A DNA stretch of 64,000 nt, from assembly GCA_037443945.1 (NCBI GenBank), contig JBBINH010000011.1:9629-73628 (forward strand), given 5' to 3'. The stretch comes from Caldilineales bacterium (lineage in GTDB: Bacteria > Chloroflexota > Anaerolineae > J102). Position 1 is the first letter of the stretch, and each line of letters begins with the position of its first letter. The notes below the pieces were generated by a model. It made no database searches. It was not told the DNA's origin and was given only the letters and a program-made list of their open reading frames with translations. Positions 47,925 through 64,000 of the stretch are shown here, one piece after another. The position numbers and the translations under genes are program-made.

Positions 47925-48188
47925 TCAGGCCGTCAATCCGGTCTGGTCCATCTCTTCGGGGGCCGGTTTGCGCCCTTCCGGTGCCCGTTGCCAGGCATCG
48001 CACCAGCGTGTAGCCGGCAGAGGCCGGTTGTGATAGGGCGAGGCCGGATTGCGGCAGAAGGCATGGAGACGGCTGACCTGACCATCGCCGCTGCTGCGAA
48101 ACACCTCGCAAAAGGCACAACTGAAGCAATCGTGCCCCCGCAGGCGTAGCCAGGCGCGGCGCCAGCGCTTGAGGACGGATTTTGTCAT
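47925..48188 (-). CDS. Small Cys-rich protein (CxxCxxC...C...WC), possibly Fe-S or Zn binding
   Basis: ATGA overlap with the pyk stop; five Cys in 87 aa. Confidence 0.65.
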   Translation of the reverse strand: MTKSVLKRWRRAWLRLRGHDCFSCAFCEVFRSSGDGQVSRLHAFCRNPASPYHNRPLPATRWCDAWQRAPEGRKPAPEEMDQTGLTA

Positions 48189-49972
48189 ACTTGCTCCGCG
48201 TTGGGGGTCGGCCGTGCCATGTCTTCCAGGTTAGGCCCGCGATAGACGATCCCGCGCAGAGGATCGAGGATGACCAGCTCGCCTTCGGTCATGGCCTCGT
48301 AGGCGCCGGTAGCGCCGATCAACGCCGGCAGACGCAATTCCGTGGCCAGCCGCGCGGCGTAGGATTGCAGGCTGCCCTCTTCGACAACCAGCCCCCCTGC
48401 ACCGATCAGCAGGTGCTGCCAACTGCTGTCAAGGGCATGGGCCACGACGATGTCTTTATCGTGCAGTTGTAGGTTCGCAGGCAGCGGCGGCGCCAGCTTG
48501 CGCACCCGACCGCGCACCTTGTGATCGCCCAGGCCCAGACCGCGCGCCACCACCTCTTCGATCAACTGCACCTTGATCAGATTGGTCGTGCCCGGCGTGC
48601 TGCCGGCCGTGCCGGCGGTGATGACCACCAGGTCGCCTTCTCGAACCAGGCCGTGTTGGAGCGCCGTTTGCACGGCATCGGCCACCACCTCGTCGGTTGA
48701 ATTGCGCCGGGGCGAAAACAGAGGAAATACCCCCCAATACAGATTGAGCTGACAGCGCACCAAGGGACTGGGGGTAATGGCAACGATCGGGAGACCGGGC
48801 CGCGCCCGCGAAAGCTGACGGGCGGTGTAGCCCGATGCCGTGGGCGCAATAATGGCCGCCGCATTCAGGTTGCGGGCGAGATCGCTGGCGGCTTGGGCAA
48901 TGGCCTGGGCAGCGAAATGCGGCTCCGATCGCAGCCACGATCGGCGTCGCTCCTGCTTCACCAGCTCCGCTTCGGCCCGGGTGATGATGCGCACCATCGT
49001 CTGCACCGCCGCCACCGGATAACGTCCTGTGGCCGTCTCCCCCGAAAGCATGACGGCATCGGTCCCATCGAGAACGGCATTGGCGACATCGCTGGCTTCG
49101 GCGCGGGTTGGCCGCGGGTTCCGGATCATCGAGTCGAGCATCTGGGTGGCCGTGATCACGGGCTTGCCGGCTTCGTTACAGAGGGCGATGATCCGTTTCT
49201 GGATCATCGGCACCTCCTCGGCCGGCATCTCGATACCCAAATCCCCGCGGGCGACCATAATGCCATCGGCGGCCTGAATGATGGCCTCGATATTCGCTAC
49301 GGCTTCGGGCTTCTCGATTTTGGCGATGACCTGCGTCCCCAGACCGGACCGAGACAGCCGGCGGATGAGCGCCTTCAGTTGCCACACCTCCTCGGCCGTA
49401 CGCACAAAGGAAAGCGCCACCCACTCAAGCTGATGGGCCACGGCAAACTCCAGGTCTTGCCGGTCTTTCTCGGTCAGGGCAGGGATGTGGGTATCCGCCC
49501 GCGGCAGGTTCAGGCCTTTGTGCGAGAAAAGCGTTCCCCCCGTGACAACCCTGGCCCGGATATCGGTGGCCGTCGTGCCGACCACCTCCAACTCCAGGAG
49601 GCCATCGTCAAGGAGGATACGGTCACCGGGTGTGACCAGCAGGGGCAACTCAGGATACTGGCAGGGGATGGCATCCGTCCGCTCCGGATCGACCGTCAGG
49701 ACCACCTCCTCGCCAACGCGCAAAGCCACCCCCTCGGACGGCAAACGCCCCACCCGGAGCTTGGGGCCTTGCAGATCCCCCAGGATGGCCACGGGTCGAT
49801 CGAGTTCGTCGGCGATGCGACGGATACGACGAACGGTTTCGGCGTAGGTGGCCTGATCGCCGTGGGAAAAATTGAGACGGGCTACGTCCATACCGGCGCG
49901 GATGAGCTCGGTCAGAACGGCAGGATCATGGCTGGCCGGCCCGATGGTACAGACGATCTTGGTAAAACGCAT
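48185..49972 (-). CDS. pyk: Pyruvate kinase with C-terminal PEP-utiliser-like domain
   Basis: TKIVCTIGPAS, RLNFSHG, AKIE, MVARGDLG and TATQMLDSM. Confidence 0.96.
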   Translation of the reverse strand: MRFTKIVCTIGPASHDPAVLTELIRAGMDVARLNFSHGDQATYAETVRRIRRIADELDRPVAILGDLQGPKLRVGRLPSEGVALRVGEEVVLTVDPERTDAIPCQYPELPLLVTPGDRILLDDGLLELEVVGTTATDIRARVVTGGTLFSHKGLNLPRADTHIPALTEKDRQDLEFAVAHQLEWVALSFVRTAEEVWQLKALIRRLSRSGLGTQVIAKIEKPEAVANIEAIIQAADGIMVARGDLGIEMPAEEVPMIQKRIIALCNEAGKPVITATQMLDSMIRNPRPTRAEASDVANAVLDGTDAVMLSGETATGRYPVAAVQTMVRIITRAEAELVKQERRRSWLRSEPHFAAQAIAQAASDLARNLNAAAIIAPTASGYTARQLSRARPGLPIVAITPSPLVRCQLNLYWGVFPLFSPRRNSTDEVVADAVQTALQHGLVREGDLVVITAGTAGSTPGTTNLIKVQLIEEVVARGLGLGDHKVRGRVRKLAPPLPANLQLHDKDIVVAHALDSSWQHLLIGAGGLVVEEGSLQSYAARLATELRLPALIGATGAYEAMTEGELVILDPLRGIVYRGPNLEDMARPTPNAEQV

Positions 49973-50018
49973 GGCCAAACCTCCGCAAACTCCGGCTCAG
50001 GTGACGGTTGCGCCGACT

Positions 50019-51271: not shown

Positions 51272-52438
51272 TCACGACAGCCGGCGTTGATACTCGGTCC
51301 ACAGGCGGTTGAACCGGTCGGCCGGATCGCGGCGATAGGCCTCGCCGTCCACTTCCAGGATGGGAAAAGCGACTGCAACGGACATCGACAAGGCCTCGAC
51401 CAGCTTTTTCTCCCGCCAGGTGTTCTGCTGCCAGCGCAAGAGCCCGGTATGGCGGCGCCAATGCGCCTGGTCGTAAGGCGGTTGTTCCCACAACGCCGGC
51501 GGAATATCGGCCCAACGCCACAGCCACAGCTCCGGACAGCGGCGCTGACGGGCCAGGGCCAGGACCTCGGCCAGGTGGACGGCCGCTTCTTCCTCGGCGG
51601 CATAGTACACACCCTCGCTGGCCATACCGGCGCCACCGGTTGGATCGGTCGGCAGACCGGCCAGATGCAGAGCCACGGGCCGACCGGCCAGGGTCACGGT
51701 CAGATCGAGCAGAAAGGCAATCCAGCCGGTGTGCAAGGGCAGGCGACGGCGATCGCTGGCGAAGGTGGCGACGCTGAGAGCGGGCTGAGCACCGGCTGCC
51801 AGCACCTCGTCAGGCCAGAGGGTCGGCCGTCCCTCCAGCGCATCGGCCGCCAGCAACACGCTCGCATCCAGACCCGGCGCCGCTTCGTGCAGGGCCGCCA
51901 CCGTGCTCTGCAACCAGGTCATCGCCGTCTCGGTAGGAAGGGCTGCGGTCAGGCGTCCAAAACCGGGTAAGGGTTCCCAGCCCAGAAGGGCCGGATGGTC
52001 GCGATACCAAGTCACCAACTCGCGCACCAGGACCAGGCGGGCCTGGAGCATCCGTTCATCGGTGCAGGGATGCCGGACCCGTCCCCAGCGCACCCACTTG
52101 CCGTCCACGATTAGGGGCCAACTCGGCGGCAACGGCGCCGGGAAGACGCCCCAGGCAGGCCACCAGAGGGCGCCATCCCACATGCCGGTCCACAGGCCGG
52201 CGCGTACGCGCAAGCCGTGCTGATGGGCCAGGTCGAGAAACCGGCCGAAAGCATCCAGGGTGGCCGGGCGGATGCGTTCGGGTTGGGGTTGAAAATCGGC
52301 CCAAAACAGGGGAACCCGCACCGCTTGGAAGCCAAGCGCGGCGATGTGGGCCAGGTCGTCGCCGATGGCGGCGGCATCAAAGGCCTGCCAGAAAGCCGGG
52401 CCCCGATGCGAAGGGAGATAACCGATACCGAGAAGCAT
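51272..52438 (-). CDS. GH5/GH-A-like TIM-barrel protein, catalytic residues apparently degenerate
   Basis: FW..FD, LGFQAVRVPLFWADFQP and W.WAD; canonical NEP and EFG motifs not seen. Confidence 0.7.
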   Translation of the reverse strand: MLLGIGYLPSHRGPAFWQAFDAAAIGDDLAHIAALGFQAVRVPLFWADFQPQPERIRPATLDAFGRFLDLAHQHGLRVRAGLWTGMWDGALWWPAWGVFPAPLPPSWPLIVDGKWVRWGRVRHPCTDERMLQARLVLVRELVTWYRDHPALLGWEPLPGFGRLTAALPTETAMTWLQSTVAALHEAAPGLDASVLLAADALEGRPTLWPDEVLAAGAQPALSVATFASDRRRLPLHTGWIAFLLDLTVTLAGRPVALHLAGLPTDPTGGAGMASEGVYYAAEEEAAVHLAEVLALARQRRCPELWLWRWADIPPALWEQPPYDQAHWRRHTGLLRWQQNTWREKKLVEALSMSVAVAFPILEVDGEAYRRDPADRFNRLWTEYQRRLS

Positions 52439-52470
52439 GGCGCAGCGAATGCCGGAACGCGCAACCGGGA

Positions 52471-53736
52471 TCACAAAAACCGTTGGCGATGGATTTCCCA
52501 ACCACGGCGGACCCGCGCTTCGGGTTCGTCGGCGTCCAGACGCAGGCCGAAGATGCGACCCCGCCGTCGCAACTCCTGCCGGACGGCGGATACATCCACC
52601 CCCTGACCGGCGGCCTGCAGCACGGCAACGGCCAACTCGTCCAACGCGGCCAGCGCCTGGGGGGTGTCCAGGTCGTTGGCCATGGCCTCATCAAAACGTC
52701 GGATGGCCTCCTGCCAGCGTTGGCGCAGCGCGGATGTCGGCTCTGCCGTCCCTCCGGTGGCGGTCACGGCGGCCTTGAGGCGATGGGCCGCCATCTGCGC
52801 CAGGGCCAGCTCGCCCTCGTCGTGGGTCCAGGAGCGCCGATAGTGATGCCCGGCCAGATAAAGACGAACGGCGTCGGCCGACCAGGTCTGCAACAAGTCG
52901 CGTACCATAATCAGGTTGCCCAGCGACTTGCTCATCTTGGCCCCGGCATGATAGACCATGGCCACGTGCAGCCAAAAGCGTACAAAAGACCGCCCCGTGA
53001 GCGGTTCGATCTGGGCGATTTCGCAGGCATGATGGGGGAACAGCAGATCGCCACCGCCACCGTGGATGTCGATGGTCTCGCCCAGGAAGCGCCGGGCCAT
53101 CGTCGAGCATTCGATATGCCAGCCCGGCCGCCCCGGCCCCCACGGCGATGGCCAGGAGGGTTCGCCGGGCTTATGCGCCTGCCAGAGGACGAAATCGAGA
53201 GGATCCTCCTTGTGGGGATCATCGGGGATGTTGCCGCGCTCGTTGGCCACGGCCAACATCTCGGCGGGAGAGAGACGACTGATGCGCCCGAAGTCGGGAT
53301 TCGCAGCCACGCGATAATAGACACTACCGCCGGACGCATAGGCCACACCGGCGTCTAACAGGCGCTGCACGAAGGCAATGATGTCGGGGATAACATCGGT
53401 AGCGCGCGGATAATGGTCGGGGGGTCGCACATTGAGGGCGATCATGTCGTCGATAAAATGCCGTGTCCACCGATTCCCCAGACTCCACCAATCCTCGTCC
53501 ACCTCGCGGCTTTTGCGCAGGATATCATCATCGATGTCGGTGACGTTTTGCACATACCGCACCGCCTGACCCTGGGCCTCCAGATAGCGGATGAGGACAT
53601 CGAACACCGTGTAGGTAAAGGCATGGCCCAAGTGGGTGGTGTCGTAAGGGGTGATCCCGCACACGTAGACGGTGACGGCCGGCCCGATGGGATGAAAGGC
53701 TTCGAGGCTGTCGGTCAGGCTATTGTAGAGTCGCAT
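52471..53736 (-). CDS. MshC-like cysteine ligase (CysRS paralog without anticodon-binding domain)
   Basis: [13 protein letters not shown] (MshC-type rather than CGPTVY), ERGNIP, GWHIEC, FPHH, KMSKS; 421 aa. Confidence 0.8.
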
Positions 53737-53985
53737 AGGGGTTAACCAGACACAGAGGATAACCCCATGATACTCCTGTCATCGGGCTATCGGCAAGGCC
53801 CCGTCCGGGCGTGCGAGGGTTCCGGCCCGGAGCCTGCGCCGCGGCCGATGAGGATGGTGAACAAGTCCACGCCAGGGCGCGCAAGGACCTTCGAGGCATC
53901 TCACCACCGGTCAACGCCGTGCGCGGTGCGACCTGTGCGGGCATCCGACGCCGGTACCGACCGGGAGCGCCATGGTTTGCTTCCC

Positions 53986-54019
53986 AAAAAGAACGCCCCG
54001 GGATCAACCGGGGCATTCT
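53986..54019 (-). terminator. Rho-independent terminator of the phasin gene
   Basis: Minus strand AGAATGCCCCGG-TTGATC-CCGGGGCGTTCT-TTTT. Confidence 0.8.
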
Positions 54020-54040
54020 CGCGCATGGGAAGGGGGAGCA

Positions 54041-54454
54041 TCAGGCAACGCTCTTGGGCTCGGCACCGAGCTTCTTGTCCAATTCCGAGACCTTGCGCGA
54101 AAGCGCGGCGATCTTCTTGCCCAGCTCCTCGATATCGCTCTTGCTGGGGATATTCATCATCGCCAGGACGGCTTCGATGCGCTGATCGAGCATCTTCTCG
54201 AACCGCTCTTCATACTCGGTGACCGGTTTGCGACCGCGGCGAAGCCATTCCTGCAGCAGCTTGCGGCCATCCTGCTCGGCCACTTCGCCTTTCTCCTGCA
54301 GCCGCTTGATCATGGCTTCAATTTCCTCACGACCCAGCGCCATAGCGCCGAGACCAAGGCGCAGACCCGTATGGGCTGTTTTGACGACGACATTGTCCTG
54401 GGCAAAGCGTTCAACGCCCTTGACGGCGTCGGTGACTTGGGTTTTCACGTCCAT
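54041..54454 (-). CDS. Phasin-like PHA-granule-associated protein (PhaF/PhaI type)
   Basis: LGLGAMAL..EE, L.EKGE and NIPSKSDIEEL..KI..L; AGGAG RBS. Confidence 0.8.
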   Translation of the reverse strand: MDVKTQVTDAVKGVERFAQDNVVVKTAHTGLRLGLGAMALGREEIEAMIKRLQEKGEVAEQDGRKLLQEWLRRGRKPVTEYEERFEKMLDQRIEAVLAMMNIPSKSDIEELGKKIAALSRKVSELDKKLGAEPKSVA

Positions 54455-54532
54455 GGTTGATTAACTCCTGATCAAAAGGGTGGTCATTTCGTCTTGCGTG
54501 GTCAAGAGCCGATCAAAATCGGCGGCAATGTC

Positions 54533-54585
54533 ATGACGCAACGCGTTATCATCTCCATTATGACGCATCGCGTCATGAATGTCAA
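54533..54585 (-). promoter_or_regulatory. Phasin promoter with two palindromic operators
   Basis: TTGACA(54585-54580)-17 bp-CATAAT; ATGACGC-AAC-GCGTTAT at 54533-54549 and ATGACGC-ATC-GCGTCAT at 54560-54576. Confidence 0.8.
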
Positions 54586-54644
54586 GCCCTCTGACATAAG
54601 AATCTCATTAGCGTTTTCGCCCTCGGGGCGCCCCGTCTCCCCGC

Positions 54645-55742
54645 TCAGGCCCAGGGCATGGGCGGCGGCGGCACAAAAGTGGACCTGATGGCCACAGGCG
54701 CTGCCGTCAGCAGGGCCTGCTGGAGGGCTTCGAGCACGGCAATGACATGCAAACTGTGCTCGATCCTCGCATGGGGAGAACGGCCGTCGATCACGGCCGC
54801 AACCAGATCGGCCACGCCTCGGCTCCAATCGACTCCGGGAAACGGCCGACGCACCCACGGCACCGGTTGCAGTTTGCCGTCATGCGGCCCCCACAGCACC
54901 GCCGCGTCGAAGCGATAAGCGCTGCCCAGATGCAAGGAGGCCTCATCCCCGTGGAACTCGATGGCCTGCCCCTGCTTCGAGGCCGCCGTGTAGAAGTTCA
55001 CCGAAAGCCGCATCACCGCCCCCTGAGCGAACCGCACCAGGGCCACGATCCAATCAGGTCCTTCCAATCGAAACGAGACCCCCTTACGGTCCTGCCGTGC
55101 GGCCAATAGCTGCCCACCCCAGGCCCGTACTTCCTGCACCGGCCCCAAAAAGGCCGTCACGACCGTCAACGGATAAATGGCCATATCCCAAAGCGGCCCG
55201 ATCCGGTAAACGGCCTGGGGTCGGGGATGCCAGGTTTCGATGCGACCGTGATTGCTCTCGGCGTAGACCAAACGAACCAGGCCCAAACGACCCTCGCGCA
55301 GATAGCGGCCTGCCGTCTGCTGGGCTTCGCCCATGTAGGTGATGGGCGCTGCCACCAGATGAACCCCCCGCCGGGCGGCCAGCGCAGCCAGTTCCGAGGC
55401 GGTCGCTACCGACAGGGCCAGCGGTTTTTCACTGAAGACATGTTTGCCCGCCTCCAGACACCGCCGGTTGACCTCGGCGTGGGCCTCCGGTGGGGTCAGG
55501 TTGACGACCACCTGCACGGCCGGATCGGCCAACAGGGCCTCCAGCTCGGGATAAGCCTGACCGCCGTAACGCCGGGCATAGTCCTGGGCGTGCGCGAAGA
55601 CGACATCGGTAAAGCCGACCAGTCTCATCTGCGGCTGTTTGGCTATCGCCGCGCTGTAGGCGGCGGCAATGTGACCACAACCGACAATGCCGATCCCTAA
55701 ACGGGAACGTAAGGGTCGGATCCGATGCCACAGCCGCTTCAT
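54645..55742 (-). CDS. Gfo/Idh/MocA-family oxidoreductase
   Basis: GCGHIA, FSEKP and GPLWDMAIY; ATGA overlap with the MaoC gene. Confidence 0.85.
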   Translation of the reverse strand: MKRLWHRIRPLRSRLGIGIVGCGHIAAAYSAAIAKQPQMRLVGFTDVVFAHAQDYARRYGGQAYPELEALLADPAVQVVVNLTPPEAHAEVNRRCLEAGKHVFSEKPLALSVATASELAALAARRGVHLVAAPITYMGEAQQTAGRYLREGRLGLVRLVYAESNHGRIETWHPRPQAVYRIGPLWDMAIYPLTVVTAFLGPVQEVRAWGGQLLAARQDRKGVSFRLEGPDWIVALVRFAQGAVMRLSVNFYTAASKQGQAIEFHGDEASLHLGSAYRFDAAVLWGPHDGKLQPVPWVRRPFPGVDWSRGVADLVAAVIDGRSPHARIEHSLHVIAVLEALQQALLTAAPVAIRSTFVPPPPMPWA

Positions 55743-56173
55743 GACGCGGTTGTCTCGGCCGGGAAGGCCGCTACGAATTCGCCCTTGAGCTTGCGATGAC
55801 CGCTCTGATCGACGGCCTCGACCTCGCAGCGGACGCGCTTTTCGCCTTCGGCCTCGAACTTCTCGACCACCCGGCCCGTCACCGTGATGACATCGCCGGG
55901 CCGACTGATGCCGGTAAAGCGCACACCAAAGCGCCGCACCTGTTCCGGCCGTACCCAATTCGTGATCATTTGGGCCACAAAGCCCATAATCAGCATACCG
56001 TGGGCAATAACGCCGTTATGCCCTGCGGCCACACCGGCCTGATGGACGGTATGAATGGGGTTGAAATCGCCGGAGGCGCCGCTATAGCGCACGAGCTGTT
56101 CGGCGGTAATGGCCGGTTTGGTCAGGGCAGGCAGCGGATCGCCGACCCGGATGTGCTCGTAAACAAGGGCCAT
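55739..56173 (-). CDS. MaoC-family (R)-specific hydratase/dehydratase, catalytic subunit
   Basis: SGDFNPIH (D-x4-H) and IAHGML. Confidence 0.9.
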   Translation of the reverse strand: MALVYEHIRVGDPLPALTKPAITAEQLVRYSGASGDFNPIHTVHQAGVAAGHNGVIAHGMLIMGFVAQMITNWVRPEQVRRFGVRFTGISRPGDVITVTGRVVEKFEAEGEKRVRCEVEAVDQSGHRKLKGEFVAAFPAETTAS

Positions 56174-56175
56174 GC

Positions 56176-56637
56176 CTACCACCTCACGACCATGGTTGTG
56201 CGGGCGATGACGACCGGTTCGCCATGTTGATTGCGATAGGTGGCCTGGGTTTTGACCAGGTCCATGGGGCCGGAACTGCCCTCCTTGCGCTCGATGCTGA
56301 CGATTTCGAGTTCGCCGGTGATCTCATCGCCGGGATGAAGCAACCGAAAGTACTCGTATTCCTCCTCACCGTGGAGGATGCGCAGGACATCGGCACCCAT
56401 CTGCTGCAACAGACTGCGCGTTTCGGCGCCGACGGCGCTACCGCCCCAAAAGCGGAACAGGGTAGGAAAGGTCAGGGGCGCCACCATGTCGGGATAGCCG
56501 GCCGCCTGGGCGGCAGCCCGGTCGTGAAAAAGGGGATTGTCATCCCCAATGGCCAAGGCCAGCTCACGGATTTTGCCGGCCTCCACCCGATAGCGGATGG
56601 GAGGTAGTTTTTTGCCCACGTAGTTGTGGTCGAGCAT
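56176..56637 (-). CDS. MaoC N-terminal/HadA-like hot-dog partner subunit
   Basis: IRELALAIGDDNP, APLTF and LHGEEEYEY. Confidence 0.88.
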   Translation of the reverse strand: MLDHNYVGKKLPPIRYRVEAGKIRELALAIGDDNPLFHDRAAAQAAGYPDMVAPLTFPTLFRFWGGSAVGAETRSLLQQMGADVLRILHGEEEYEYFRLLHPGDEITGELEIVSIERKEGSSGPMDLVKTQATYRNQHGEPVVIARTTMVVRW

Positions 56638-56695
56638 ATCCACTCCGGAGGACAAAGCGAGATCGAAAAAACAACCGGGACGACGAATGGGACTG

Positions 56696-58396
<1,701 letters not shown>

Positions 58397-58426
58397 TTTG
58401 TGGCAATCCCGGTGATGGCTAACGGT

Positions 58427-59878
58427 CTAGGAGGTCTTACGCGCGGCCCGATCGCGCACGATTTTGACAAAGGAACGACTGCGCAGCTCGTCCAGGGTGA
58501 TGCCGGTGGCCGTGACCTCGGCCTCGGTGAGGGCGCCACAGGCCAGGCCGCGCAAGAAAAAGTTGAGCAATCCCTGGCCGGTGGCCGCATCATCAAAGGT
58601 ATTGCCGACCAGGGTGGCCTGGGCTGCACGCTCGATAAAGGCATTGAGTCGCTTCGAGGCATCGTCCAAGCTCTCCAGGAAGAAGTGGTAAACGGCGGCA
58701 TAGCGCACGGGCAATTGCGCCGGGTTGAGGTCCCAGCCCTGGTAGTAGCCGTGGCGCAGCGAGTGAGTGATGTTGTCGTAGTGCAGCTTCCAGCCACGGT
58801 GGACCGTCTCCAGGTTCTCGGCCACCTGCTGGGCCGTAAGCGGTTTTTCAGGCGTGGCCTTATGAGGCGCAATGGGCATGATGGTGGTGGCCCCATCGCT
58901 GAGGGTGATGCCACGACCGGCCAGACTCACCTGCAGCACATGACGGGCAAAATCGGCGGCGGGATGGGTGTGGGTCTGAAAATGGGCGGTGATGTTGCAC
59001 AAGGCGGTGTAATCGTAGGTGCCATAGGCGCAGGACCGGACCCGCCCGCGACCGGCCTCGACCAGCAAATTGACCGTGTTCTCGCCACGATGATTGATAA
59101 TGGCCTGAGGGGTCTCGATCATCAGGTCAACACCGATAGCCCCCGACGGGATGCCCAGGCGGGCTTCTAAAAGTTCCAGCAAATCCACCAGAGCCGTCAC
59201 CTGCTCCGGCATTTGCACCTTGGGCAGGGTGACGACGAAGTTGGTCGACACGCGGCCCCCGGTTTTGCCGGCCAGGGTGGTGAGGACGAGATCGAGGGTG
59301 CGGACGCTGCGCTCGTAGCATTCGTCGGAGAAGGACTTGACACGAAACCCGATAAAGGGCGGCAGAGCGTCCTTTTCCATGCCCAGAGCCAGTTGCGCAC
59401 CGACCTTGAGGGCGTCGGCATCCTCTTCGGCATCGGGCCGGTTGCCGTACCCATCCTCGAAGTCGATGCGCAAATCCTCGACCGGTTCGCGACGGAGCTT
59501 CTCCCGCACACGGGTGTAGATGGTGTAGGCCATCCAGGCCGGCTCGTTGGCGCGTTTGACGGCTTCGGGATCGTGGGCCAGCGCCTCTTCCAGCTTTTTG
59601 ATCTCGGCTTCCGTGTGGGGCAGGAGCTCATGCCCGCTCATCTTGAGGATGCGGGCGAAAATGACGAAATTGGGCGCATACTCCTCCAGGCTGCGCAGCG
59701 CCAATTGCCCCATCTTGGCCGCTATATCGGCCTTGAACAGATGGGCGCCGCCGTACAGGGTATGCACCGGCTGACGATCCAGGGGATCACCGGGATAGAG
59801 GCGGCGAAAGGCGGCGTTGGCCGCGGCCAGGCGCCGGCTGATGGGGTCGAGAAGCTCGGAGTTCAGGGTAGTAGGCAT
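58427..59878 (-). CDS. Uncharacterised CitE/malate-synthase-fold enzyme (DUF6986-like aldolase/lyase)
   Basis: RQPVHTLYGG, DLRIDFEDGYG, LPKV, MIETP, GTYDY, SDGAT and QGWDL.P.QL. Confidence 0.75.
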   Translation of the reverse strand: MPTTLNSELLDPISRRLAAANAAFRRLYPGDPLDRQPVHTLYGGAHLFKADIAAKMGQLALRSLEEYAPNFVIFARILKMSGHELLPHTEAEIKKLEEALAHDPEAVKRANEPAWMAYTIYTRVREKLRREPVEDLRIDFEDGYGNRPDAEEDADALKVGAQLALGMEKDALPPFIGFRVKSFSDECYERSVRTLDLVLTTLAGKTGGRVSTNFVVTLPKVQMPEQVTALVDLLELLEARLGIPSGAIGVDLMIETPQAIINHRGENTVNLLVEAGRGRVRSCAYGTYDYTALCNITAHFQTHTHPAADFARHVLQVSLAGRGITLSDGATTIMPIAPHKATPEKPLTAQQVAENLETVHRGWKLHYDNITHSLRHGYYQGWDLNPAQLPVRYAAVYHFFLESLDDASKRLNAFIERAAQATLVGNTFDDAATGQGLLNFFLRGLACGALTEAEVTATGITLDELRSRSFVKIVRDRAARKTS

Positions 59879-59921
59879 GGCTCAACAGGAGCAAGACGAG
59901 GTGCGGAGGAAGCACCAAGGG

Positions 59922-61088
59922 CTATTTTTCCAACAGACGGCGGGCGATGACACTGGCCTGGATCTCGCTGGTACCCTCGAAGATGCGGAAAATGCGGCCG
60001 TCACGCCAGTAGCGCGAGACAGGATACTCCAGGGCGTAACCATAACCACCGTGAATCTGCATGGCCTCGCTGGTCACGTATTCCACCATGTCGGCGCAGA
60101 AGAGCTTGGCCATCCCGGCCTCCAGATCGCAGCGCTTGCCCTGGTCCTTCATACGGGCGGCATAATAGGTCAGTTGGCGGCCGGCCTCGACTTTGGTGGC
60201 CATATAGGCCAGTTTGTGCTGGATGGCCTGAAATTCGCTGATGGGTTTGCCGAACTGATAGCGTTCGCGGGCGTAGCGGATGGCTGCCTCCAGAGCGGCC
60301 TGAGCCACGCCGACGGCGCGGGCCGCCGTCTGGATGCGGGCCACCTCATACACGGCCATCAACTGGTAGAAGCCCTGGCCTTCCTGACCGCCGATGAGGT
60401 TTGCGGCCGGAACCTCGAAATCATTGAAGCTGAGGGAAAACGACTTCATGCCGTGATAGCCGATGGTGGGAATGCGCTCGCCCAACAAATGGGGCGGCAT
60501 AAAGCCGTCGCCGGGTTCTTTTTCGACCATGAACATGCTCAGCCCTTTGTGTCGCTTGCTCATGTCCGGATCGGTGCGGGCCAAGACCGTCATGAGATGG
60601 GCGCGGTTGGCAAAGGTGATCCAGGTCTTCTGGCCGTTGAGCACGTAGGTGTGATCGTCCTTTTTGACGGCCCGGAGCTGCATCCCGGCCGTATCCGACC
60701 CGGCATTTGGTTCGGTAAAGGCCGCGGCGGGTAGGAGCTCGCCCGCGGCAATACCCGGCAGCCAGCGCTGCTTTTGCGCTTCGGTACCACCGGTAAGCAA
60801 CAAGCCTCCGGCGATGAGGGTGCGGGTCATGACCGAACCCACCGAGAGCCAAACCCGGCTCAATTCCTCGGTGACGATGACCACCGAGAGATTGTCCATC
60901 CCCAGGCCGCCGTATTGTTCGGGAATGGCCATGGCAAAATAGCCCAACTCGGCCATCTGGCGGATGATCTCCATGGGGATTTCGGCTTCCCGGTTGTACA
61001 GCTCCTGAGCCATCGGCGCCACAACTTTCTCGGCAAAACGACGCGTTTCCCGGCGTAGGGTTTCGTATTCGGGGGGCAAAATGCTCAC
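59922..61088 (-). CDS. Acyl-CoA dehydrogenase, methylsuccinyl-CoA dehydrogenase-like
   Basis: FTEPNAGSD, IGYHGMK, ARIQTAARAVGVA, RCDLEAGMAK and IFEG; GTG start with GGGAG RBS. Confidence 0.85.
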   Translation of the reverse strand: MSILPPEYETLRRETRRFAEKVVAPMAQELYNREAEIPMEIIRQMAELGYFAMAIPEQYGGLGMDNLSVVIVTEELSRVWLSVGSVMTRTLIAGGLLLTGGTEAQKQRWLPGIAAGELLPAAAFTEPNAGSDTAGMQLRAVKKDDHTYVLNGQKTWITFANRAHLMTVLARTDPDMSKRHKGLSMFMVEKEPGDGFMPPHLLGERIPTIGYHGMKSFSLSFNDFEVPAANLIGGQEGQGFYQLMAVYEVARIQTAARAVGVAQAALEAAIRYARERYQFGKPISEFQAIQHKLAYMATKVEAGRQLTYYAARMKDQGKRCDLEAGMAKLFCADMVEYVTSEAMQIHGGYGYALEYPVSRYWRDGRIFRIFEGTSEIQASVIARRLLEK

Positions 61089-61172
61089 GGCTGGCTAAAC
61101 TCCCTGATTGATACCGGATGAACGGGAACGAGAATACCGCCACGGCGCCTTTGCGAGGCGCCGCTCAAGCTT

Positions 61173-63512
61173 TCAAATGGGATCCACACCGAAGTAGCCC
61201 CAGGTCGCCTCCTCGGTTACCGGCTCCGTGCCTCCCAGCGTCTGGCGGATGATGTCGGTCATGCTGACCACGCCGATGGGCCAGGGACGCCCCTCCCGTT
61301 GCTCCACAACCACCAGCCGGTGAATCCGATGGCGGGTCATCAACGTGATGGCCTGGGCGAGTGGGGTCTCGGGTGTACAGGTGATCACGTCCGCCGTGAG
61401 GATATCGGCAGCCGTCAGCGCCGCCAGTTGCTCCGGGGTACGCCCCAGACGGGCCATGACCAGGTCGGTCTGGGAGACAATGCCGACCAAAAAGCCCTCG
61501 CGATCGACGACTATGACGGCGCTGATCCGATTGGCCAGAAGGCGATGCGCTATCTCGCTTACCGAGGTGTCGGGATAGCAGGAGATGACGCCATGATGCA
61601 TGACATCGGCCACGGTGCTCTCGTCAGGCAGGGTGGCCGCAGCCGGTTTGGGCGGCACCATCTGCGCAGGCCGCGGCGGTGTAGGCTCATAGACCTCGGT
61701 CAATGTCGGCATGGTGCCGCTTTCCTCGGCCATGGTAGGCAGATCCAGCCCGTAGTTGATGATGTCGGTCTGGCTGAGGATACCGATGGGCCACAACTTG
61801 CCCTTGCGCTCGTCCACCACGACCAGGCGATGAATGCGATTGCGTGTCATCAGGGTAATGGCTTCGGCGACGCGGGTTTGCGGCGTGCAGGTGATCAGAC
61901 GCGGGGTCATGATATCGGCCGCGGTCAGGCGGGCGAGTTGGGTGGGCGTATGGCTCTGGCGGGCCAGGACGATATCGGTCTGCGAGACGATGCCGATGGC
62001 GTAGCCGTCTTCGTCCACGACGACGATGGCATGAATCCGATAACTGGCCATGCGCCGGGCCACTTCGTTGACCGGCGTGTTGGCGCTCACGGTGATGGCG
62101 CCGTAATGCATCAGCTCACGGACGGTCATGGTCTCGAACGGCGTGGTCGGCAGCGTCTCCGGTTCGGGCAGACGACGCAAAGGCGCCCGGAAGAAGTCAC
62201 GACGCTCGGTCGGAACGGGGACACGCGGTGCAACCTTGACCGGTTCGGCGGCGCCGATGCCCAGGCCGGTTGTCGGCGCGCCCACCAAAATGGCCATATT
62301 CCCGTAGGGATGCTTGTTTTCGTACATCAACTGATGGGCCAGGGCCAACTCATCCCACCTGAAAGTGCGGGAGAGGCAGGGATCCACCTGACCGCTCATG
62401 ACCAGGTCGTTGAAGCCTTTGGCCTGCTCGTCGTTGGCAAAATGCGAACCTTGCAGCCGTTTCTGCCGCATCCACAGATAACGCAGATCCACCGTGGCAT
62501 TATAACCGGTCGTGCCGGCACAGATGACGACGATGCCGCCGGTGTCGCACACGAAAATGGACGTGGGTATGGTGGCTTCGCCGGGATGTTCGAAGACAAT
62601 ACGCGGGTTCTTGCGCTCGCCCAGGATGTCCCAGATGGCCTTGCCGAACTTGCGTACCCCCTTGAGCCATTCGGCATAACCGACGGTATCTTTCCAGTGG
62701 GGCAACATCCCCCAGTGATCGAAGTTCTTGCGGTTGATGCATCCCACGGCTCCCAGGCTCTGGCAGTACGCAAACTTATCCTCCGAGCTGACCACAGCGA
62801 TGGCCTTGGCCCCGGCTGCCCGGCAGATCTGGATCGCCATGGACCCCAGGCCACCGGCCCCGCCCCAGATCAACACGACATCGCCTTCACGCAACGCATG
62901 TTCACTCCACCCGTACAACATGCGATAGGCCGTAGCTCCCACCAGCATATAGGCCGCCGCCTGCTCCCAGGTCAAATGCCTGGGTTTCGGCAGACATTGA
63001 TGGTCTTGCACCTTGGTGAACTGGGCGAAACTGCCCCAATTCGTCTCATAGCCCCAAATGCGAAACGAGGGGTCGTACATGGGATCGTTACCGGCCTTGA
63101 CCCAGGGCGATTCCTGGTCCCACACCCCGCAGTGGATGACCACCTCGTCGCCAACCTTGAGATGCTTGACCTTTTTGCCGACTTTATAGACGATGCCGCT
63201 GGCATCGCTGCCACCGATATGGAAATCCTCCGGCTCACCGGCTTTCTGACGGGCCGCGATGACGTTCACAGGAACACCCAGGGCAGCCCATACGTTGTTG
63301 TAGTTGACCCCGGAGGCCATCACATAGACCAGGACCTCATCATCGGCCGGCTCGGGAACGTCGACAATCTCGACCTGAAAGGCCTGCATCGGTTCGCCGA
63401 AGCGCTCGGCTCGAATGACCCAGGCATACATCTGCTTGGGCACGTATCCCAACGGAGGCTGCTCACCGATGGGATAGAGGTCTTTCAGTTTAGATGAAAT
63501 CGCGTGCGACAT
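61173..63512 (-). CDS. ccr: Crotonyl-CoA carboxylase/reductase fused to four CBS domains
   Basis: [53 protein letters not shown]; two CBS pairs at the C-terminus. Confidence 0.92.
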
Positions 63513-63637
63513 CGTGCACCCTCCGGCGACAAAAGCAAAAGACCAAAACGCGGGAAAACGCTTTGCCGACCTCGGCCGTCATCAACGCGGCATCCTTGCC
63601 GCTCATCGGCGTCGGGGTAACCGACCACCGGTCGATT

Positions 63638-63796
63638 GTGACGCATTGTGTCATAAACGAAGGCCGATGGCAAGTTGACAGAGGGGCAAAAGCGGGCGAT
63701 GCGGTCTTGTCCTCCTCATTTCCGGTGCTGTTTGGCATAGCGCGTCGCATTACGACGTGATGGCCAATTGACACAACGCGTCATAACGGTTATAGT
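63638..63796. promoter_or_regulatory. Divergent ccr/thiolase promoter region with two palindromic operators
   Basis: GTGACGC-ATT-GTGTCAT at 63638-63654; TTGACAC-AAC-GCGTCAT at 63768-63784; plus-strand TTGACA-17 bp-TATAGT at 63768-63796. Confidence 0.8.
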
Positions 63797-63887
63797 GGAA
63801 GCCGGAACCGCCGCTGTGCCTTTACCAGCGGTTCCGGTCGCTTCGGCCTGGATCCCAAGGTTGCGCTTCTCTCTCAGGAGCTCCACC

Positions 63888-64000
63888 ATGCGCGATGTGT
63901 ATGTGCTCGGCGTCGGGCAGATCCCCGTCACCAAGGAAAAAGACGAATCCTTACGCGAAATGGCCGCCCGGGCGGTAAAGGCCGCTCTGGCCGATGCCGG
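63888..64000 (+). CDS. Thiolase-family protein (SCP-x/archaeal-type N-terminus), truncated by the window end
   Basis: Hand translation MRDVYVLGVGQIPVTKEKDESLREMAARAVKAALADA; AGGAG RBS. Confidence 0.75.
   Translation, partial: MRDVYVLGVGQIPVTKEKDESLREMAARAVKAALADA

Follow-up and report, generated by a model that had tools for sequence, protein, structure and literature searches.

The 64,000-nucleotide stretch of Caldilineales DNA analysed here (as a whole "the window", positions 9629-73628 of contig C11 of the genome under study, G000:C11:9629-73628) carries near its right-hand end, on the minus strand, eight closely spaced and co-oriented genes running from 63512 to 54041, the first of which encodes a crotonyl-CoA carboxylase/reductase (Ccr). 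This operon is probably a variant ethylmalonyl-CoA (EMC) module for CO2-fixing acetate assimilation, in which a standard Ccr core is accompanied by non-standard parts, among them a short acyl-CoA dehydrogenase (ACAD), a split B12-dependent mutase and a protein of the family DUF6986. The EMC pathway is a main alternative to the glyoxylate cycle, and the gene sets of Alphaproteobacteria and Streptomyces consist of ccr, ecm/meaA, mcd, mch and mcl1. The features of the locus, in window coordinates, are:

61173-63512, minus: ccr fused to CBS domains, 779 aa (TIGR01751 and PF00571)
62253-63512, minus: Ccr core, about residues 1-420 (TIGR01751; PDB 9kva, 4gi2)
61173-62252, minus: four CBS domains, or two Bateman modules, forming the C-terminal extension of Ccr (PF00571)
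59922-61088, minus: short (2S)-methylsuccinyl-CoA dehydrogenase (Mcd)-like ACAD, 388 aa (all three ACAD domains; 6es9)
58427-59878, minus: DUF6986 protein of the malate synthase/CitE superfamily, 483 aa (PF22484; fold)
56696-58396, minus: mutase large subunit of split type, A-L-S-C clade, 566 aa (PF01642, 719.3 bits)
56176-56655, minus: HadA-like hot-dog subunit, probably non-catalytic (Pfam/NCBIfam profile matches)
55739-56182, minus: HadB/MaoC-like hot-dog subunit with a G-D-x-N-P-I-H stretch (profile matches)
about 54645-55742, minus: Gfo/Idh/MocA oxidoreductase (profile matches)
54455-54644, no strand: phasin promoter region, a 190-nt gap with two operator palindromes and a promoter-like site
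54041-54454, minus: phasin-like gene (PF05597)
63513-63887, no strand: divergent ccr/thiolase promoter region with two operator palindromes and promoter-like sites
63888-64000, plus: 5' end of the divergent thiolase gene, which runs off the window (NF004720)

The HadA-like and HadB-like open reading frames overlap by 7 nt and, as read from the sequence, the oxidoreductase start overlaps the HadB-like stop. The closest homologs of three cluster proteins bear Caldilineales, Anaerolineae or Chloroflexi names, and in a syntenic Caldilineales metagenome-assembled genome (MAG; locus L017) the order thiolase <> ccr-CBS, ACAD, DUF6986, mutase, HadA, HadB is retained at 62-83% identity; the Gfo and phasin genes gave no tblastn match in that MAG. 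An earlier note on this DNA had described the same co-oriented gene order with a divergent thiolase in a probable Chloroflexota host, all of which is borne out, and the conservation of the cluster, on which it had made its reading depend, holds in this one MAG, minus the Gfo and phasin genes, which can no longer be counted as conserved members.

The carboxylase scores 588.7 bits on TIGR01751, above the equivalog cut-off of 378.55, and its best PDB match is 9kva (579 bits), with 522 bits to 4gi2 ("Crotonyl-CoA carboxylase/reductase") and 257 bits to the octenoyl-CoA enzyme 4a0s. In the Kitasatospora enzyme KsCcr the CO2 pocket is formed by N81, F170, E171 and H365, and a Tyr at position 170 retains carboxylation, according to the available part of PMC6628652; the stretches N-Y-N-N, G-Y-E-T-N and G-S-H-F-A-N of the window protein are, judged by eye, tentative counterparts of these residues. 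The C-terminal extension matches PF00571 with 191.4 bits in four stretches, the coding DNA of which contains direct repeats spaced 210, 300 and 210 nt, and the four domains probably sense a small ligand. All of the best 120 Ccr homologs carry CBS domains (20 are of four-CBS and 100 of two-CBS length). Within this set such fusions are common, with four domains in homologs with Chloroflexota names and two in those with Myxococcota or Pseudomonadota names, and a literature search found no paper pairing "crotonyl-CoA carboxylase" with "CBS domain".

The nearest solved relative of the ACAD is PdMCD, the Mcd of Paracoccus denitrificans (6es9, 442.7 bits; the next match has 339.4 bits and another Mcd, 8ciw, 315). 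Residues were counted by hand along the 6es9 alignment and compared with the specificity and catalytic residues given in the available part of PMC5798300: Arg252, Arg421, Ser248, Thr418, Ala285, Phe287 and Glu535 are retained, with the stretches A-A-F-T-E-P-N and I-F-E-G aligning to the C2-methyl pocket (Ala285, shifted Phe287) and to the catalytic Glu535, respectively, and Glu380 is replaced by Ser. The comparison supports a reading of the ACAD as a methylsuccinyl-CoA dehydrogenase core that lacks the N-terminal extension of the Paracoccus enzyme and appears to keep most of its specificity residues.

The genome holds three mutase large subunits, 59-60% identical pairwise. The copy on contig C2 lies beside genes for a biotin carboxylase, a biotin carrier protein and the sole epimerase, and has a Tyr/Arg pair and the motif H-T-N-S; the copy on C1 lies beside the sole mutase-type B12 subunit and a MeaB-like gene, and has Phe/Gln, as in isobutyryl-CoA mutase (ICM), with H-T-N-S. 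The window copy, in the EMC-like operon, retains the Tyr/Arg pair of carboxylate-binding mutases and has A-L-S-C at the position where methylmalonyl-CoA mutase (MCM) and ICM have H-T-N-S and the fused ethylmalonyl-CoA mutase (Ecm)-like proteins from DUF6986 loci have Q-L-P-A; these positions are defined from sequence. It has no PF02310 match, that is, no B12-binding domain of its own. At C1:86157-89441 the ICM-like large subunit is followed by the genome's only mutase-type B12 small subunit (G000:C1:87947-88372) and then by the MeaB-like GTPase, and with only one such subunit the three large subunits would have to share it. A reading of the window protein as a 2-hydroxyisobutyryl-CoA mutase was rejected because the aligned specificity positions, Ile/Gln in HcmA, are Tyr/Arg as in MCM.

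All of the best 120 database homologs of the window mutase contain x-A-L-S-C-[YF]. A FastTree tree of 41 mutases groups all 32 A-L-S-C rows into a single clade with an SH-like support of 95, which neighbours the H-T-N types and is distant from the fused Ecm-like rows, and the window mutase is 36-43% identical to the fused Ecm-like proteins of loci L019, L020, L021 and L085. In a single sample of the phylum comprising 401 genomes, with Ccr called at E<=1e-90, the A-L-S-C mutase and Ccr occur together in 18 genomes, the mutase without Ccr in one (G045), Ccr without the mutase in six and neither in 376, which gives 19 genomes with the mutase and 24 with Ccr; when the unpublished genomes G173 and G272 are set aside, Ccr is present in 16 of the 17 A-L-S-C genomes. 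The genomes with both genes are not independent cases, because they are spread over just five families. A DNA pattern for the motif was found in 22 genomes, 19 of which encode A-L-S-C and three A-L-W-C or A-L-C-C; one of these three loci is without a mutase and the other two hold a different mutase type. Among the 16 published A-L-S-C loci, fetched without G173 and G272, Ccr lies within 10 kb in 11, and five have an Mcd-like ACAD; for four of the five loci without a nearby Ccr the gene is found elsewhere in the genome, one of these four being a partial match located where a contig ends. Taken together, the sequence comparisons make the A-L-S-C large subunit a candidate ethylmalonyl-CoA mutase.

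Two side observations concern split mutases. In G045 the locus L130 (G045:C7:203300-223299) encodes, in a row, a malyl-CoA lyase (Mcl)-like lyase, a short Mcd, a MaoC protein resembling mesaconyl-CoA hydratase (Mch), the A-L-S-C mutase, a short-chain dehydrogenase/reductase and a thiolase; the best PDB matches of the lyase are malyl-CoA lyases, and no Ccr that could supply ethylmalonyl-CoA was found in this genome. The loci L146 and L147 (in G062 and G050) hold a further split mutase type, with A-L-C-C and an adjoining B12-binding gene, 47-48% identical to the MCM-like paralog.

The DUF6986 protein matches PF22484 with 574.9 bits over profile positions 1-408, above the cut-off, and malate synthase PF01274 with 17.5 bits, under the gathering score of 26.4; it has no Pfam match to HpcH/CitE (PF03328), and its best match among PDB chains by sequence, at E 0.79, is not significant. 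Its AlphaFold model, of moderate quality (pLDDT 74.7) and with extra N- and C-terminal helices, retrieved in Foldseek the CitE-like 3qqw, an uncharacterised protein, at E 4.8e-6, and malyl-CoA lyases and malate synthases at 5e-4 to 3e-3. Its L-P-K-V, I-E-T and G-x-x-D-[YL] motifs have alignable counterparts in Mcl and malate synthase; the hhalign matches are local and weak (probability 7-9%) and do not discriminate between the two as the nearer relative.

DUF6986 is a very large family, found in at least 598 species genomes, and is strongly conserved (mean column identity 75% in a 20-sequence alignment; the best 120 of 8000 scored candidates are 61-91% identical), and a literature search found no paper that names it. 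Some NCBI records call it "phosphoenolpyruvate kinase", a name for which no support was seen. Among the best 80 loci (L017-L096), 57 lie beside urate or allantoin genes, seven beside at least two of the ACAD, mutase and Ccr genes, 16 beside neither and none beside both. In the purine-type loci the neighbours are an OHCU decarboxylase/HIU hydrolase, an allantoinase-like amidohydrolase, a PuuD-type urate oxidase or a xanthine dehydrogenase; those among L023-L096 belong to Acidobacteriota, Bacteroidota and others. The carbon end product of urate and allantoin breakdown is glyoxylate, and since most DUF6986 genes sit in such clusters, glyoxylate chemistry is put forward as the common denominator of the EMC and purine contexts.

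In a tree of 80 rows (the window and 79 loci, one having been dropped by a filter) the rows with EMC context fall on one side of a branch with support 98. Close relatives in Pseudomonadota stand beside Mcd-, Mch- and Ecm-like, MeaB and Ccr-CBS genes. The nearest rows to the window protein come from MAGs that bear Pseudomonadota and Myxococcota labels, and in the phylum sample the full-length protein occurs in G000 only (the next match has 74.8 bits); these relatives and this rarity point to horizontal transfer. Ccr is present in six of nine genomes of the EMC-type clade, as against one of ten purine-type genomes. Five of the nine, the completeness of which is not known, show no HpcH/CitE protein at E<=1e-10, so that DUF6986 would be their sole candidate lyase. 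The operon position of DUF6986 also parallels that of the Mcl-like gene in the G045 operon. On its modelled fold and its context the protein is a candidate glyoxylate-handling acyl-CoA lyase or synthase. Malate synthase was found in G000, G404 and G405 and not in G401, G402 or G403, and two gammaproteobacterial MAG loci, L020 and L085 (G403 and G405), encode DUF6986, an Mcd-like ACAD and a fused Ecm-like mutase with neither Ccr nor HpcH/CitE found (completeness not known).

As to the rest of the route, the genome yielded no isocitrate lyase, no fused Ecm, no Mcl and no full-length Mch, the sole PF19315 match being a 169-aa MaoC protein on contig C42. One malate synthase A and one epimerase are present. 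Of HpcH proteins, the genome holds a single CoA-lyase-like one, a RipC-like CitE encoded beside a RipB-like MaoC protein, again on C42; both fall under their cut-offs. A literature search combining "ethylmalonyl-CoA" with Chloroflexi or Chloroflexota found nothing on the subject by title or abstract.

The two hydratase-like subunits match only the FAS1_DH_region, MaoC and HadA/HadB models, with no match to the mesaconyl-CoA hydratase family PF19315, and it is solely their operon position that suggests a role as mesaconyl-CoA hydratase. The phasin-like protein scores 39.2 bits on PF05597 (cut-off 28.8) and 51.5 on NCBIfam TIGR01837, under the cut-off of 94.7.

The palindrome TGACGC-N3-GCGTCA, with at most one mismatch, has 27 copies in the genome and three in a reversed-sequence control. 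The cluster holds four of these 27, at 54534-54548 and 54561-54575 before the phasin-like gene and at 63639-63653 and 63769-63783 between ccr and the thiolase gene, so that the shared operators reported earlier are indeed the same palindrome in both promoter regions. The copies at 54561 and 63769 overlap the two highest-ranking promoter-like sites here, both of which match at 11 of 12 positions: TTGACA-17-TATAGT at 63768-63796 (plus strand), overlapping the operator at 63769, and a site at 54585-54557, overlapping that at 54561. Further copies precede an ACAD, a second phasin-like gene (C1:97200-97622), an acyl-CoA ligase, an SCP2 protein, a GNAT, an alpha/beta hydrolase and a CCG/Fe-S oxidoreductase (examples are G000:C1:47364, C1:97695, C10:39496, C3:19970, C6:19431, C25:18273 and C13:6113). 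Since copies stand before other acyl-CoA genes, the palindrome suggests an acyl-CoA regulon that would link the operon, the thiolase and the phasin-like gene to them.

The thiolase is an archaeal-type "thiolase domain-containing protein", the halves of which match NF004720 at positions 1-150 and 169-387 in two different frames of the contig. The split (about 760-820 of L002, just beyond the window end) is also present in run X1, the contig of which is probably the source. By our own arithmetic the contigs of runs X3 and X4, one base short at place 815 of L002, bring the halves into one frame; that of run X2 also lacks the base at 815 but gains two at 795. L017 encodes an intact ortholog of 387 aa. 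No RNA run was among the sequencing runs listed as containing this DNA, and every DNA run with at least half of the searched words belongs to a single study.

Of the remaining surroundings, cysS, two genes without Pfam match and a pyruvate kinase (48185-49978, minus strand, with a C-terminal PEP-utilising mobile domain) come next on the 3' side, and the cluster is therefore taken to end at the phasin-like gene. An open reading frame at 63716-64000 (minus strand) was discarded as a gene candidate, having no family match and lying antisense to the thiolase start. In an Rfam scan of 52000-64000 nothing reached the gathering score, and there was accordingly no sign of a cobalamin riboswitch.

The proposed route would begin with the reductive carboxylation of crotonyl-CoA to ethylmalonyl-CoA by the CBS-fused Ccr. 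The sole epimerase, the gene of which adjoins that of the ordinary MCM on a different contig, would invert C2, and the A-L-S-C large subunit, with the sole B12 subunit encoded beside the ICM-like paralog, would form methylsuccinyl-CoA, which the short Mcd would oxidise to mesaconyl-CoA. The HadA/HadB-like pair would then hydrate mesaconyl-CoA to beta-methylmalyl-CoA, and DUF6986 would carry out a Claisen step at the glyoxylate level, most likely by releasing glyoxylate and propionyl-CoA; it might in addition condense glyoxylate with acetyl-CoA. The canonical malate synthase A and the MCM and carboxylase genes elsewhere in the genome would complete the route. The upper half of this scheme (Ccr, mutase, Mcd) is well supported by the sequence comparisons. 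What these show directly is family membership, residue conservation, synteny and co-occurrence; the substrates, the small subunit that the mutase would use, and what the hydratase pair and DUF6986 do are inferred.

Several observations weigh against the scheme. In the ACAD, Arg376 of PdMCD, which binds the substrate carboxylate together with Arg252 and Arg421, is replaced by His, and the protein aligns to residues 169-551 of 6es9 only, so that an N-terminal extension of about 170 residues is missing; in Mcd this extension replaces the tetramer interface. G045, a 100% complete genome, has the A-L-S-C mutase and no Ccr, and three of the nine genomes of the EMC-type DUF6986 clade likewise show no Ccr. 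The hydratase pair resembles mycobacterial HadAB, not Mch, and could equally form crotonyl-CoA from (R)-3-hydroxybutyryl-CoA; the thiolase gene is frameshifted in this assembly; and the RipB/RipC-like MaoC and CitE pair on C42 could perform the last steps. To these are added the two facts about DUF6986 on which the strongest alternative is built, namely the 57 of 80 loci in urate/allantoin clusters and, in Accumulibacter, a canonical Mcl that scores 685 bits against 6kin and is encoded some 5 kb away, because of which DUF6986 need not be the lyase.

That alternative keeps the EMC module and makes DUF6986 a malate-synthase-like enzyme or a malyl-CoA thioesterase, leaving cleavage and hydration to the CitE-like protein of C42 and its MaoC neighbour. 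It is unlikely, but to be taken seriously: apart from the two facts just given, glyoxylate being the end product of the purine context, G-T-Y-D-Y of DUF6986 aligns in the weak hhalign match with G-R-W-D-Y of the genome's malate synthase, and the syntenic Caldilineales MAG, like this genome, has the CitE-like and MaoC pair. Against it, the genome already holds a malate synthase A, the Mcl-like lyase of G045 fills the matching operon slot, the five EMC-type genomes without HpcH/CitE offer no such substitute, and the EMC-type and purine-type proteins, on separate branches, may differ in reaction.

An operon chiefly tied to polyhydroxyalkanoate (PHA) granules, for the mobilisation of polyhydroxybutyrate (PHB) or for propionyl-CoA supply to polyhydroxyvalerate as proposed for Accumulibacter, seems improbable. 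The phasin-like gene after the operon and the second one on C1 both carry the operator, and EMC transcripts are recorded in Accumulibacter in the available part of PMC12604563; this 98% complete genome yielded no PhaC of either class I or class III, the phasin match lies under the NCBIfam cut-off, and the gene is not conserved in the syntenic MAG. The PHA link of the cluster is weak.

Less probable still is that the mutase is merely a second MCM and the operon one for propionate or methylmalonyl metabolism. The window protein has the Tyr/Arg carboxylate pair of MCM, is 59% identical to the genome's MCM-like paralog and reaches 618.5 bits on the NCBIfam MCM model NF006944; that score is under the cut-off of 876, it is the C2 paralog with H-T-N-S that stands beside the biotin carboxylase, carrier protein and epimerase, the operon partners here are Ccr and an Mcd-like ACAD, and the A-L-S-C type accompanies Ccr in 18 of 19 genomes. 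A supply of alkylmalonyl- or alkylsuccinyl-CoA for a secondary metabolite (a polyketide extender, or an actinonin/matlystatin warhead), for which pairs of Ccr and Ecm-like mutase are known (PMC5719088, in the part available), is hardly credible next to the housekeeping flanks (cysS, pyruvate kinase), a scanned region with neither polyketide synthase nor non-ribosomal peptide synthetase, a Ccr score twice as high on 4gi2 as on 4a0s, and an ACAD that retains the short-chain dicarboxylate pocket of Mcd.

The variant EMC module thus remains the probable reading of the operon. The earlier note had proposed a CO2-fixing EMC route for acetate and PHB with a non-standard protein in each slot: the EMC part is largely supported, and its PHB side is not. 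The regulated Ccr and the short Mcd hold as described; the MCM-type mutase in the Ecm slot is upheld as a split protein of the MCM/ICM lineage tied to Ccr, its substrate remaining inferred; the split hydratase is present, its role being argued from position; and the uncharacterised lyase has the expected fold and relatives beside EMC genes, in competition with a malate-synthase-like role. The B12-binding subunit and the epimerase do lie outside the window, as that note had it, on C1 and C2. The canonical ecm, full-length mch and mcl genes that could have done the work elsewhere, and aceA, for all of which it had called for a genome check, were not found, the C42 pair being a possible stand-in for the last steps.

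A broader proposal, which we hold tentatively and rate at slightly under an even chance, joins two claims: that DUF6986 forms a new class of Claisen enzymes, widely distributed and acting on glyoxylate and acyl-CoA, which would add another type to the malate synthases or to the malyl-CoA/beta-methylmalyl-CoA lyases, with an EMC subfamily closing that route (Caldilineales, several Pseudomonadota, Myxococcota) and a purine subfamily serving glyoxylate disposal in Acidobacteriota and Bacteroidota; and that Chloroflexota derived an Ecm of their own from split mutases of the MCM/ICM lineage, in an event separate from the origin of the fused Ecm. If true, ethylmalonyl-CoA mutase would have evolved a second time, A-L-S-C in place of H-T-N-S providing a specificity hypothesis, and DUF6986, for all its species genomes, would gain a testable glyoxylate-linked function. 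The Chloroflexota form of the pathway would be scored as incomplete by the standard markers (fused ecm, long mcd, mch, mcl), and the Ccr-CBS fusions would indicate direct ligand control of a carboxylase that belongs to the fastest CO2-fixing enzymes, according to the available part of PMC9413435.

Compared with the EMC sets of Alphaproteobacteria and Streptomyces, the operon brings together the same classes of protein (Ccr, B12 mutase, Mcd-type ACAD, MaoC-type hydratase and an enzyme of the CitE/malate-synthase fold), likewise in a genome where no isocitrate lyase was found and where the epimerase is common to MCM. It differs in that the mutase is split and of the MCM/ICM lineage, not a fused Ecm; that Mcd is without the extension of about 170 aa; that a HadAB-like heterodimer stands in place of the fused Mch; and that DUF6986, not HpcH/CitE, occupies the lyase slot and Ccr bears four CBS domains. 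Protein by protein, the ACAD has PdMCD (6es9) as its best PDB match and shares Arg252, Arg421, Ala285, Phe287 and Glu535 with it, but has His for Arg376, Ser for Glu380 and no N-terminal extension. The mutase is like the split mutases (1req, 4r3u) in that its large subunit, of about 566 aa, has no B12 domain, with HcmA (4r3u, 565 bits) as best match, from which it differs by Tyr/Arg instead of Ile/Gln and A-L-S-C instead of H-T-N-S. DUF6986 is alike in fold and alignable motifs to the malyl-CoA/beta-methylmalyl-CoA lyases (4l9y, 5ugr, 6kkh) and to the malate synthases A, G and H, but shows no significant sequence match to any PDB chain and, at 483 aa, has extra terminal helices. The Accumulibacter locus (L021) differs in its long, 559-aa Mcd-like ACAD, its PF19315-type hydratase, its fused Ecm-like mutase (672 aa) with MeaB, its two CBS domains on Ccr and its Mcl about 5 kb away; what it shares with the Caldilineales operon is DUF6986 and a CBS-fused Ccr standing together with EMC genes.

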